Made by a program: the position numbers and the translations under genes
Assembly (NCBI GenBank): GCA_964016885.1
Contig: OZ024745.1
Span: forward strand, 5,518,001-5,582,000
DNA length: 64,000 nucleotides
Source of the DNA: Eledone cirrhosa
Taxonomy: Eukaryota
Reading direction: 5' to 3'
The notes under the pieces: generated by a model
The model's database searches: none
What the model was told of the DNA's origin: nothing
Seen by the model: the letters and a program-made list of their open reading frames with translations, nothing else
In this document: one piece after another, positions 52,803 through 56,365 of the stretch
How positions within the stretch are numbered: position 1 is the stretch's first letter
How the letters are laid out: every line of letters starts with the position of its first letter

Positions 52803-53019
52803 ACCATTTGGGAGCAGCCATTGGCGTCAGCATAGCTGGTGACGTTGCCAACCTTTTTACACTATATAAACTATATACAACTATAAATAGGAAAGGTCAG
52901 TAATTCATTACTACCTTATTACCAGTAAGAAAAAATAGCTGAATGTAAATACATCAGATGTTTTACAGAGCAGGAATATAAATTACACAATAATCAAAAC
53001 TATGTTCAAATCATTTTAT

Positions 53020-53066
53020 TGCTGACAATCATTTCTTCCAAACTTTCGTTTGGAATCCTCGGAGCA
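53020..53066 (-). ncRNA. Minimal hammerhead ribozyme motif, CCGAGGA core
   Basis: TGCT-CCGAGGA-TTCCAAAC gaaa GTTTGGAA-GAAA-T gatt G-TC-AGCA, then ATAAA. Confidence 0.7.
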
Positions 53067-53719
53067 CTAGCAAAGTTTGGACATATAATTAACTTCCTAT
53101 TCAACTGAATAATCATATAGATACATGGATATTAATGTTGTCATCAACAGTTTCGTATTTACAGAGTGGAATGCATGTGACAGAGATTACAAGAGAATAG
53201 TATAATAATTAAAGCAGTATAGGGAGTGCAAATGCGTTAGGCGTATACAGGACAGTTAGGTAGGAAACAAGCAATGGCACTAGGCATATATAATTACTGC
53301 ATGGCAAAGGTATCACATAAAATAACATAGGTTTACAAGCATATCAAGAAGGCAAAGGTGTTTGTGTATTAAAATTACAATTATCACACTACATCCACCA
53401 TAAACTCATAATTTTAATACACAAACATCTTTGCCTGCTTGATATGCTTGTAAACCTATGTTATTTTATGTGATATCTTTGCCATGCAGTAATTATATAT
53501 GCCTAGTATCATTGCTTGTTTCCTACCTAACTGTCCTGTATATGCCTAACGCATTTGCACTCCATATACTGCTTTAATTATTATACTATTCTCTTGTAAT
53601 CTCTGTCACATCCATTCCACTCTGTAAATACGAAATTGTTGATGACAACATTAATATCCATGTATCTATATGATTGTTCAGTTGAATAGGAAGTTAATTA
53701 TATGTCCAAACTTTGCTAG

Positions 53720-53766
53720 TGCTCCGAGGATTCCAAACGAAAGTTTGTAAGAAACGATTGTCAGCA
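53720..53766 (+). ncRNA. Minimal hammerhead ribozyme motif, CCGAGGA core
   Basis: TGCT-CCGAGGA-TTCCAAAC gaaa GTTTGTAA-GAAA-C gatt G-TC-AGCA, then ATAAA; GUC cleavage triplet. Confidence 0.7.
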
Positions 53767-53964
53767 ATAAAATGATTTGAACATAATTCTGATTATTGTA
53801 TAATTTATAATTTATATATATATATTAGAAAGTGAGGTTTTTTTTACAAAATGAAAAATAACCGAGGTGTCCTACACGAGTGGAAGTATAAAGAAAAAGA
53901 GATGAAATCGAAAATGCAACTGAAGTCTTATTTTTTTAAAAAATATATATATATTTATTTGGTT

Positions 53965-54002
53965 CCTTTACCGGTTTCGCAGTTCTTCTGCTTTTCAAAA
54001 GG
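53965..54002 (-). ncRNA. Minimal hammerhead ribozyme motif, U3-A8 core variant
   Basis: Minus strand CCTT-TTGAAAA-GCAG aagaa CTGC-GAAA-C cg G-TA-AAGG. Confidence 0.75.
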
Positions 54003-54208
54003 TGAGTTGAGATGGAGGGTCTGTGGTTTACACTATATGTGATACCTTTGCCATGCAGTAATTATATATGCCTAGTACCATTGCTTGTTTCCTACCTAAC
54101 TGTCCTGTATACGCCTAACGCATTTGCACTCTCTATACTGCTTTAATTATTATACTATTCTCTTGTAATCTCTGTCACATGCATTCAGAGACCCTCCATC
54201 TCAACTCA

Positions 54209-54246
54209 CCTTTTGAAAAGCAGAAGAACTGCGAAACCGGTAAAGG
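54209..54246 (+). ncRNA. Minimal hammerhead ribozyme motif, U3-A8 core variant
   Basis: CCTT-TTGAAAA-GCAG aagaa CTGC-GAAA-C cg G-TA-AAGG; stems I and II perfect, palindromic ACCGGT at stem III, AATAAA a few nt downstream. Confidence 0.75.
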
Positions 54247-54323
54247 AACCAAATAAATATATATATTTAAAAAAAAAAATAAGACTTCAGTTGCATTTTC
54301 GATTTCATCTCTTTTTCTTTATA

Positions 54324-54628
54324 TATATATATATATATATATATATATATATATATATATATATATATATATATATATATATATATATATATACATATAT
54401 GTACATATATATATATTTGAGTATATATATATATATATATATATATATATGTATACATATATTAGATGTATATAGCACATATACTATGTATATAGTGTAT
54501 GTACACAATACTATACACACACACACACACACACACACACACACACACACACACACACACACACACACACACACATATATATATATATATATATATATAT
54601 ATATATATATAGAGAGAGAGAGAGAGAG
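54324..54628. repeat. Compound microsatellite (TA)n-(CA)n-(TA)n-(GA)n
   Basis: Directly visible. Confidence 0.97.
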
Positions 54629-55383
54629 AAATCACATGAATCAAAGTTCTGTTCAAACCATTTATTAGCTTACAATTGTTTCGTCCAAACCGAGGTTTGG
54701 AGTCTTCGGAGCAATTTTTCAATGATTGTTTACATACATGACCTCCTTTCCAACACAAGAGACATATAGAAACATATGTATATATCGATGCACAGTGGGG
54801 TGACATCCATTATAATATTTTAGCATGCCAATTTACATTCAAAAATTAAAATCATATTAAAAGAAAATTAAAACAAAATTAAAGTTAAAATACAACATCG
54901 GCAGTTTACGAAGATAATGCAAGAGGATAATTTGAAGTAGTTAGTGTATGCAATAGTTACACGTGGGGCATGCACGTGTGTCTTATTTGTATAAGATTAT
55001 TGTGCGGCAAGGTGTTATATGCAATACAAGCATTTTAAGCGGGTAATCAAGAGTATTATGGGGGTTGTATTGGTAAAGTATTTTTTATGTATGATAAAGA
55101 AGCTTGTGTGCAGAGAAATATTAAAAATGAGAAGCAAAATAATGTTATGGTTTTTGTATACACCACCATTTTCACAATCCAGGAAACGTAATATATAGAT
55201 TATATGTCCTTCACATAATTAACGATGATTCAGTATTGGATGTTTGATGTATTACGTTAGATTATTACAGCTTGTTGTTCTTTAATCCAATTTTATAGAG
55301 CAGGTTGTTTTTGTTGTGAGTTTAGACGAAACAATTGTAAGCTAATAAATGGTTTGAACAGAACTTTGATTCATGTGACTTCT
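54627..55383. mobile_element. Foldback element C: ~64-bp inverted ends, full hammerhead motif on the left, 3' half on the right
   Basis: 54627-54690 is the reverse complement of 55320-55383; ~630-bp AT-rich interior without a recognisable ORF. Confidence 0.8.
54668..54712 (-). ncRNA. Minimal hammerhead ribozyme motif, CCGAAGA core
   Basis: Minus strand GCT-CCGAAGA-C-TCCAAAC ctcg GTTTGGA-C-GAAA-C aatt G-TA-AGC-T-AATAAA; palindromic stem III tetraloop. Confidence 0.72.
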
Positions 55384-55544
55384 ATATACGTGCTCTGTAG
55401 AACAACTAATGTTATTACATTGAGCTATTTATCTTACTGGTAATACGGTAGTAATAAATTAGTCTTTCACTGTTTAGGGTTTAAAATATATATAACTATA
55501 AAAAGTTTTAGTATATACATTACCATAAATAGTATCCTTAATAC

Positions 55545-55765
55545 TATATATATATATATATATATATATATATATATATACACACACACACATATATATA
55601 TATATACATATATATATATATACATATATATATATATATATATATACATATATATATTTGAGTATATATATATATATATGGTATATATGAATATATATAT
55701 ATAGGTACATATATGTACACACACACACGCATATATAAGTACATATATGTATATATATATATATA
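55545..55765. repeat. Interrupted (TA)n/(CA)n microsatellite
   Basis: Directly visible. Confidence 0.95.
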
Positions 55766-55808
55766 AATGAAAAATGGCGTGCTGCGTTGTTGCAAATGTG
55801 TAAATGGG

Positions 55809-56365
55809 ATACATATGAATAAAATTAGAGCGAGAAGACGTCCGTCATCAGTGATCTTCCAACCGTCATTGGTATTTCTTCGCATTAAAGATCATATACC
55901 TCTGGCTGGTGCGAGAAATAACTAAAAAAAGGTATTGGGACACGTAGAATAGGGTGAAGCGAGCGAGACATGTAAACAAACAAAGATGGTAATGCAACGG
56001 AAAGAGAGGAAGAGGAGAAACAAGTCCGTGATATCTATGAACTTAAGTTCGGCGAATCATGGGCGAGGAGAGACACAGACGCGTCCGAACCATGTGAGAT
56101 GTAAGCGAGAAAAGGATTTCACACAGGTCTGACGGGAGGAAGTGAGAGAGAGGGAGTAGCAGAGACTGAGTGAAAGTGTGAGGAAGAGGCCAGCTGAGAG
56201 AGAGTGACTGGCAGAGGGGGTGAAATGAACGTGTCCCAATAACTTTTTTTAGTTATTGCTCGCACCAGCCAGAGGTATATGATCTTTAATGCGAAGAAAT
56301 ACCAATGACGGTTGGAAGATCACTGATGACGGACGTCTTCTCGCTCTAATTTTATTCATATGTAT
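55809..56365. mobile_element. Foldback/MITE-like element D: 137-bp inverted arms, purine-rich interior
   Basis: 55809-55945 is the reverse complement of 56229-56365 with few mismatches; arms contain an outward-facing CTGATGA (56323-56329). Confidence 0.85.

Follow-up and report, generated by a model that had tools for sequence, protein, structure and literature searches.

Penelope-like elements (PLEs) leave insertions in which an inverted, 5'-truncated copy of the element is present and a tail occurs on one side only, a layout described in the Fig. 2 legend of Craig 2021 (PMC8557442) and in the accessible parts of Arkhipova 2013 (PMC3846280). Minimal hammerheads, of which a U3-A8 core variant is known, also occur in pairs 100-700 bp apart on opposite strands, and these pairs have been put down to truncated PLEs (PMC4209133, accessible text); in vitro, according to the available portion of PMC11167929, the PAc protein has two internal start sites, can extend both strands of the target and uses uncut RNA as its substrate, the PLE hammerheads not being needed for insertion. 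Here we analyse a 64,000-nt stretch of the 3.0-Gb genome of Eledone cirrhosa (contig OZ024745.1, 5,518,001 to 5,582,000; hereafter the window, with positions counted from its first letter), in which four neighbouring fold-back elements, A to D, sit in a TA-rich island within what is mostly satellite DNA.

The fold-backs are probably head-to-head PLE insertions in (TA)n, those of A, B and C being truncated ends of coding families and D being a piece of a protein-free tandem unit of ~543 nt, which carries a predicted rewired hammerhead and likely borrows the enzyme of a Naiad-type PLE. As framed in the first-pass annotation, which saw in them a new inverted-repeat class of non-autonomous elements, the finding is ordinary PLE debris: both the head-to-head layout and the opposite-strand pairs of minimal hammerheads of A-C are already published in the accessible parts of the papers just cited. 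The part worth following is the predicted rewired hammerhead of D, which an independent alignment made here supports at the level of sequence. The parts of the four fold-backs are as follows.

52860..53377, minus strand: A left arm with its tail (52860-52976); minimal hammerhead at 53062-53024 with a CCGAGGA core and a GUC site.
53409..53809, plus strand: A right arm, tail-less short end; hammerhead from 53724, its stem II carrying one substitution.
53826..54029, minus strand: B left arm with its 61-nt tail (53826-53886); hammerhead at 53998-53969 with a U3-A8 core and a palindromic ACCGGU stem III.
54036..54186, plus strand: B insert, a 151-nt piece of family A, nearest to the local A left arm.
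54186..54323, plus strand: B right arm, short end; hammerhead at 54213-54242.
54627..55320, minus strand: C long arm, short end, corresponding to the final ~0.7 kb of the ~1.55-kb 3' untranslated region (UTR) of the family; hammerhead at 54709-54671.
55320..55545, plus strand: C short arm with its 162-nt tail (55384-~55545); the arm begins inside stem II.
55767..56229, minus strand: D long arm, a 5'-truncated copy of the ~543-nt non-coding unit with its tail (55767-55808); rewired hammerhead motif at 55941-55840, predicted cut 55895/55894.
56229..56365, plus strand: D short arm, short end; intact rewired motif at 56233-56334, with the predicted AUA cut after 56279, GAAA at 56296 and CUGAUGA at 56323.

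All four inverted-arm elements of the first-pass annotation were recovered: the arms of A (52977-53377 and 53409-53809; 401 nt, 96% identity), the B fold-back (53887-54323), the arms of C (54627-54690 and 55320-55383) and those of D (55809-55945 and 56229-56365; 137 nt, 99% identity), with a divergence of 1.5-3.7% between the arms of a pair. Scanned with a descriptor, the whole window yields four minimal hammerheads of type I, none of them outside A, B and C; as had been claimed, each points outward and has AATAAA 3-9 nt beyond it, and the right hammerhead of C is indeed partial. An Rfam scan of 40-64 kb gave no hammerhead match at E<=5. When the window was compared with itself, the supposed flanks to the left of A and to the right of C turned out to be 76% alike in inverted orientation, which pointed to overlooked element sequence. 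The TA-rich flanks previously placed on both sides of each element are, on one side only, a family-conserved tail; that of A in the window is ~25 nt shorter than the ~140 nt of its family, at a junction with an adjoining PLE (family P). Neither did the variable cargo survive closer comparison: between the arms lie the family's own colinear body in C (its 3' UTR) and D, a copy of the neighbouring A in B, and only a 31-nt spacer in A. The insert of B differs at 2 positions from the A left arm of the window, at 6 from the A right arm and at 4-11 from each of 12 other A copies, and one of its alleles is common to the left arm alone, which lies 0.7 kb away in inverted orientation relative to the insert; a template switch onto neighbouring DNA during insertion would be the simplest reading of these sequences, and the insert may alternatively derive from the RNA of an A subfamily.

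Searches of the host's own genome returned 3683 (A), 132 (B) and 3395 (C) first-look candidates, 40 of which were scored per family, and 5388 candidates for D. Loci were fetched for long matches, so that the fractions given below are not genome rates, and the window loci and obvious duplicates were left out of the tail and pair tallies. Families A-C each possess two fixed 3' ends, one short and one tailed, whereas their 5' ends are variable. A single tail per head-to-head pair was found in 12 of 12 pairs of A, 21 of 22 of B and 7 of 7 of C, as well as in 7 of 10 of D; what A-C add is mainly this count (40 of 41 inverted pairs), in keeping with a single priming event at each of the start sites known from in vitro work. 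The targeting of (TA)n proposed earlier is borne out, as outer ends stand next to (TA)n or (CT)n in 142 of 148 cases, a proportion that is 18% at places drawn at random from these loci; the long end of A is itself TA-rich.

According to the first-pass annotation, the inverted arms plus their cargo would move as one non-coding snap-back unit, driven in trans by the neighbouring PLE. The layout is indeed common to all four elements, D is non-coding, and short palindromic copies are frequent, especially in B. Such a unit is nonetheless very unlikely, given that arm lengths and inversion joints differ from locus to locus, with nearly every locus having its own joint, that an inverted partner is missing from the ~3.3 kb fetched at 90 of the 142 family loci (one B locus being tail-to-tail), that A-C own coding regions, and that the 3' end of the neighbouring PLE is unrelated. 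It is still less credible that the fold-backs are DNA transposons of the miniature inverted-repeat type (MITEs) with terminal inverted repeats, or fold-back artefacts of assembly. The inverted ends do lie in TA repeats, and the window's joints lack read cover (raw-read depth at its own joint is only a few reads, and it is absent from the joints recovered); however, the fold-backs have no fixed, symmetric terminal inverted repeats, their arms differ by the above 1.5-3.7%, with unequal ends and variable lengths, reverse transcriptase (RT) and endonuclease (EN) frames follow, and eight joints between opposite strands of family C recur in raw reads of two other samples, their places being identical in the two runs.

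A, B and C are the 5'-truncated, head-to-head 3' ends of three coding PLE families. One copy of B led to an endonuclease with a CxxxxCxxC linker, and all 19 further loci with that DNA are colinear into the B arm; one B locus (L139) holds an open frame of 635 aa with matches to RVT_1 (E=9e-7; 29.2 bits, slightly below the 29.6 cut-off) and GIY-YIG (E=1.6e-6), and another (L261) shows an inverted arrangement of arm, open reading frame, arm and tail. For C, 10 of 29 loci extend to an endonuclease C-terminus, 66-81% identical to that of A, and locus L263 reads pseudo-LTR (pLTR) plus tail, RT, EN, 3' UTR, pLTR plus tail, with the tail continuing into the 5' region, which is the partial tandem that forms pLTRs; the fetched loci of A and B contain no such tandem. 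For A, 3 of 21 upstream regions extend to a GIY-YIG-type C-terminus, ~1 kb farther upstream than the window arm. The arm is thus the 3' end of an RT and GIY-YIG element in B and C, and in A by the endonuclease C-terminal motif and its identity to that of C. The Penelope-like origin put forward earlier therefore stands, and the coding PLEs that were to be sought behind the same arms exist, with RT and EN for B and C and the endonuclease C-terminus only for A. Families A and C are sisters, 71% alike across 143 nt and 78% across their tails, which makes three unrelated lineages among the fold-backs, not four; three were the minimum originally counted. By the linker criterion of PMC8557442 alone, in its accessible part, the sequences of A and C look Penelope/Poseidon-like and that of B Neptune- or Nematis-like. 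All three families have the core, helices I and II and short palindromic helix III of minimal type I hammerheads and are predicted to self-cleave as dimers; A and C display a family-wide U4C core change (CCGAnGA), which does not appear in the accessible part of PMC4209133, and C also has a C.C mismatch closing helix II.

On the tailed arm, copies run 130-209 nt beyond the predicted cut, hence the copied RNA was uncut at that site and the elements are not ribozyme-terminated, as had been supposed. By analogy to the in vitro reactions in the available portion of PMC11167929, we infer that the PLE endonuclease would nick both strands of the TA repeat and that each freed end would prime reverse transcription on uncut element RNA. 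One end would start at the distal site, giving the tailed arm, and the other at the proximal site, giving the tail-less arm; both cDNAs would stop early and then be joined at their truncated 5' ends. The inverted arm might instead stem from self-priming or fold-back on the antisense template or the first cDNA, as proposed in the accessible text of PMC3846280, and small palindromes at several joints (the A centre, the fold-back of family P, L211, L229 and L248) would suit such an origin. We nevertheless consider it unlikely, since fold-back priming has no obvious reason to halt exactly at the second fixed 3' end, as seen in 40 of 41 pairs, and since the PAc protein does extend both strands from two internal sites. 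A same-template test of the arms was mixed: in 3 of 7 A pairs no other copy is closer to an arm than its partner arm is, which would favour fold-back priming, whereas some other copy is nearer in the remaining 4 of the 7 A pairs and in 3 of 5 pairs of C.

D differs from the other three. Its body is colinear with other copies and its tail continues into the body's own start, with a period of 543 nt in L111 and L166. Among 30 loci found by the first 176 nt of the unit, 24 reach the 3' end after ~0.54 kb and six are truncated, deleted or inverted; none of the 30 has a coding region joined to the unit; the longest open frames of D (78-122 aa) are of low complexity. A related family, 71% identical to D, forms nine head-to-tail units of 721-806 nt ending in (TA)n (L264, G000:C1:43917000-43926000). 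DNA reads matched against the D unit reveal only the head-to-tail joint, already present as DNA in the contigs. Being tandem and devoid of a coding region, D is a non-autonomous unit with PLE insertion marks, head-to-tail rather than inverted; non-autonomy as first proposed thus holds for D alone. Two sets of candidate coding partners were rejected: the likeness upstream of D in L099 and L114 is an unrelated LINE RT, and the families of L100 and L210 have no PLE RT upstream of the motif. In L118, near 1380-1460 (oriented), the 5' end of a D copy abuts an inverted stretch similar to the family P 3' UTR, possibly, to judge from the sequence, a head-to-head insertion of two families.

D had been taken for a mere core remnant of a hammerhead. 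In fact both of its arms hold every core element, in rearranged order, the long arm with two substitutions in the side hairpin. From 5' to 3', the motif reads: end helix strand, side hairpin, stem II strand, bridge strand and substrate block (stem III, AUA, stem I), followed by a five-base linker, stem II strand, GAAA with stem III, bridge strand, stem I, CUGAUGA, one base and end helix strand. The strand order is therefore substrate-GAAA-CUGAUGA (S-G-C), the chain being opened between A9 and stem II; no GAAA lies 3' of CUGAUGA and the type I descriptor found no match in D. A descriptor of stems I and III in the rewired order gave 56 matches in 173 loci plus the window, compared with 0, 0 and 1 in three shuffles, and a short motif pattern hit 13,449 genomic sites against 4 for its reversed control.

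The alignment started from 103 distinct motif copies, of which 15 were set aside as 5'-truncated or lacking a relative, and retained up to six per cluster; two mosaic rows were excluded, four rows were added, one of them a 3' half only, and no pairing filter was applied. In the resulting 30 rows (29 distinct), 94.1% of cells are paired, 18 of 32 pairs are changed on both sides and all six helices hold at least one two-sided change; none of 500 shuffles scored as high and slid controls pair at 24-48%, although shared ancestry inflates both contrasts and the rows tested are those from which the structure was derived. In 11 rows representing 8 families, stems I and III are paired in 100% of cells, the bridge in 94% and stem II in 75%; over all the alignments stem II is the weakest helix (75-91% paired). 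Across these families, one of which is of largely different sequence and has a GUC triplet, C3, U4, G5, A6, G8, A9, G12, A13, A14, A15.1 and U16.1 are invariant, and the predicted cut triplet stays NUH (AUA, AUC, GUC). Minimum free energy folding, which does not recover pseudoknots, gave weak z-scores (-1.1 to -1.9).

A link to Naiads emerges from the accessible part of PMC8557442, where these PLEs are reported without standard hammerheads and Naiad_Ovul is annotated 'HHR_half_core'. Read by eye, the near-identical consensus 3' ends of two octopus Naiads, Naiad_Obim and Naiad_Ovul (File S5), contain these six helices too; their triplet is GUA and their stem II is closed throughout. The motif was not seen at the Naiad_Omin end in the same part of the file, and when four core words were sought in the Naiad supplement, a search limited by line breaks and other core letters, it turned up only in the two octopus ends. 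On balance we lean towards the view that Naiads and their non-coding parasites (more than 13,000 sites and at least 8 families here) carry an active hammerhead of a seventh topology, doubly pseudoknotted and SGC-like, whose ends exit via a helix inside the catalytic core, and which would act as a monomer, cutting tandem transcripts into unit-length RNAs. Both cleavage by the D motif and a Naiad as the driver of D are inferred here.

Several observations weigh against this interpretation of D or against the wider one of the fold-backs. Three D pairs were scored as having two tails (one clearly an internal tandem junction), and the endonuclease piece of family A has no Pfam match, nor was the RT of A recovered in its loci. 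Cephalopod Naiads are described as long inactive in the accessible text of PMC8557442; two exact Naiad-derived patterns had 0 matches in this genome and no Naiad was present in the fetched loci, and a guessed pattern matched only another non-coding family. Within the motif, D's own pair beside G12 is mismatched (a column unpaired in 7 of 10 rows), and the core is interrupted by two additional helices at a place where known hammerheads tolerate 1-2 nt (PMC10085705, accessible part), so that the D motif may not cut. Truncated starts fall at -4 to +9 of the predicted cut in 11 of 22 cases, of which one is spurious and no more than two stand at 0 or -1, palindromic pairs having entered this tally two times over.

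A tentative alternative, with a real but lesser chance of being correct, is that the D fold is a conserved protein-binding or priming structure with hammerhead words and no self-cleavage, or that D is moved by a Neptune-type PLE and not by a Naiad. Besides the interrupted core, it is favoured by inserted copies spanning the site, by the dispensability of PLE hammerheads in vitro and by the presence of intact Neptune-like frames in a genome in which the two exact patterns found no Naiad. Active cleavage and a Naiad driver would in turn better explain the catalytic letters invariant across 8 families, the covarying stems and the constant NUH triplet, as well as the match of the D fold to Naiad 3' ends when family B, by its linker Neptune- or Nematis-like, has a type I motif. 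If the D motif cuts, it would break the stated assumption that CUGAnGA cannot be parted from stem II, provide a non-circularly permuted hammerhead at high copy number in an animal genome, and account for Naiads scored as lacking hammerheads or as having a 'half core'; at ~100 nt of RNA, its cutting is directly testable.

Upstream of A lies the neighbouring PLE to which mobilisation had been attributed.

50990..52859, minus strand: degenerate 5'-truncated PLE, family P; RT piece at 52790-52392 (YVDD), GIY-YIG-like piece at 51868-51569; 3' boundary approximate.

Family P matches RVT_1 only at E=0.046 and its EN-like piece has no Pfam match; tblastn of the family A and B proteins against it gave no match, and its 3' region has no sequence in common with arms A-D, which speaks against that attribution. 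At its 5' end it has a 121-nt fold-back of its own (52739-52859), joined directly to the shortened tail of A, and its 3' UTR contains hammerhead-like words at ~51255-51295 on the minus strand (CUGACGA, a long helix II, GAAA), at which the type I descriptor failed at stem I. The fold-back region is bracketed by a 56-nt satellite of ~750 copies (1-41983) and a 26/56-nt satellite (59538-64000), and two tRNA-derived SINE-like copies (45584-45692 and 46966-47074; Rfam tRNA E=0.041) lie in opposite orientation, 84% alike. Elsewhere, the flanks of loci L001-L173 contain at least 10 other families of minimal type I hammerheads, several of which occur on both strands of a single locus, many PLE families gathering in TA islands.

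Compared with the published EN-bearing PLE insertions, as far as described in the accessible parts of PMC8557442 and PMC3846280, the fold-backs share head-to-head inverted pLTRs, a tail on one arm, palindromes at the joint, partial tandems and the (TA)n bias. They differ in that both arms are so short that no open reading frame is left, and in their tails, which usually measure 30-40 nt in PLEs and here reach 61 (B), ~140 (A) and 162 nt (C). The long helix II, short helix I and palindromic loop III of A-C, as well as the U3-A8 core of B, are those of the minimal type I hammerheads in the available text of PMC4209133.

D resembles Naiads and non-autonomous Chlamys elements such as MRC1 (PMC8557442, accessible part) in its (TA)n target and in forming head-to-tail derivatives with common 3' features; with the octopus Naiad ends it shares the fold and not recognisable sequence, and it has no coding partner located here. 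Animal non-LTR retrozymes (accessible parts of PMC7229834 and bioRxiv 10.64898/2026.07.22.740005) are likewise non-coding head-to-tail units with a ribozyme motif and presumed PLE mobilisation, and D is such a non-coding tandem unit; it nevertheless lacks a type I hammerhead in each unit, and its length of 543 nt (~530-800 in relatives) compares with ~170-400 nt for the retrozymes. A literature search, mostly of open papers, found no published description of D's layout, though variants may be held in the supplements of PMC10085705.

The closest ribozymes are the type-SGC hammerheads, which cleave in vitro and by definition have CUGAnGA directly followed by its own stem II strand (Eckert 2023, PMC10085705, accessible text). 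D has in common with them the order substrate-GAAA-CUGAnGA, an invariant core, covarying stems I-III, a short linker between stems I and II, a covarying helix bridging these two stems and two pseudoknots. Conversely, its block C is split, one stem II strand lying 5' of the substrate and the strand after A9 pairing with the 5' end of the motif, and the chain ends leave via an extra helix plus hairpin placed after A9. By breaking the stem II rule, D would, if it cuts, work in an SGC-like manner without being a member of type SGC; and whereas SGC motifs come mostly from metatranscriptomes, the D motif occurs at more than 13,000 sites in an animal genome.

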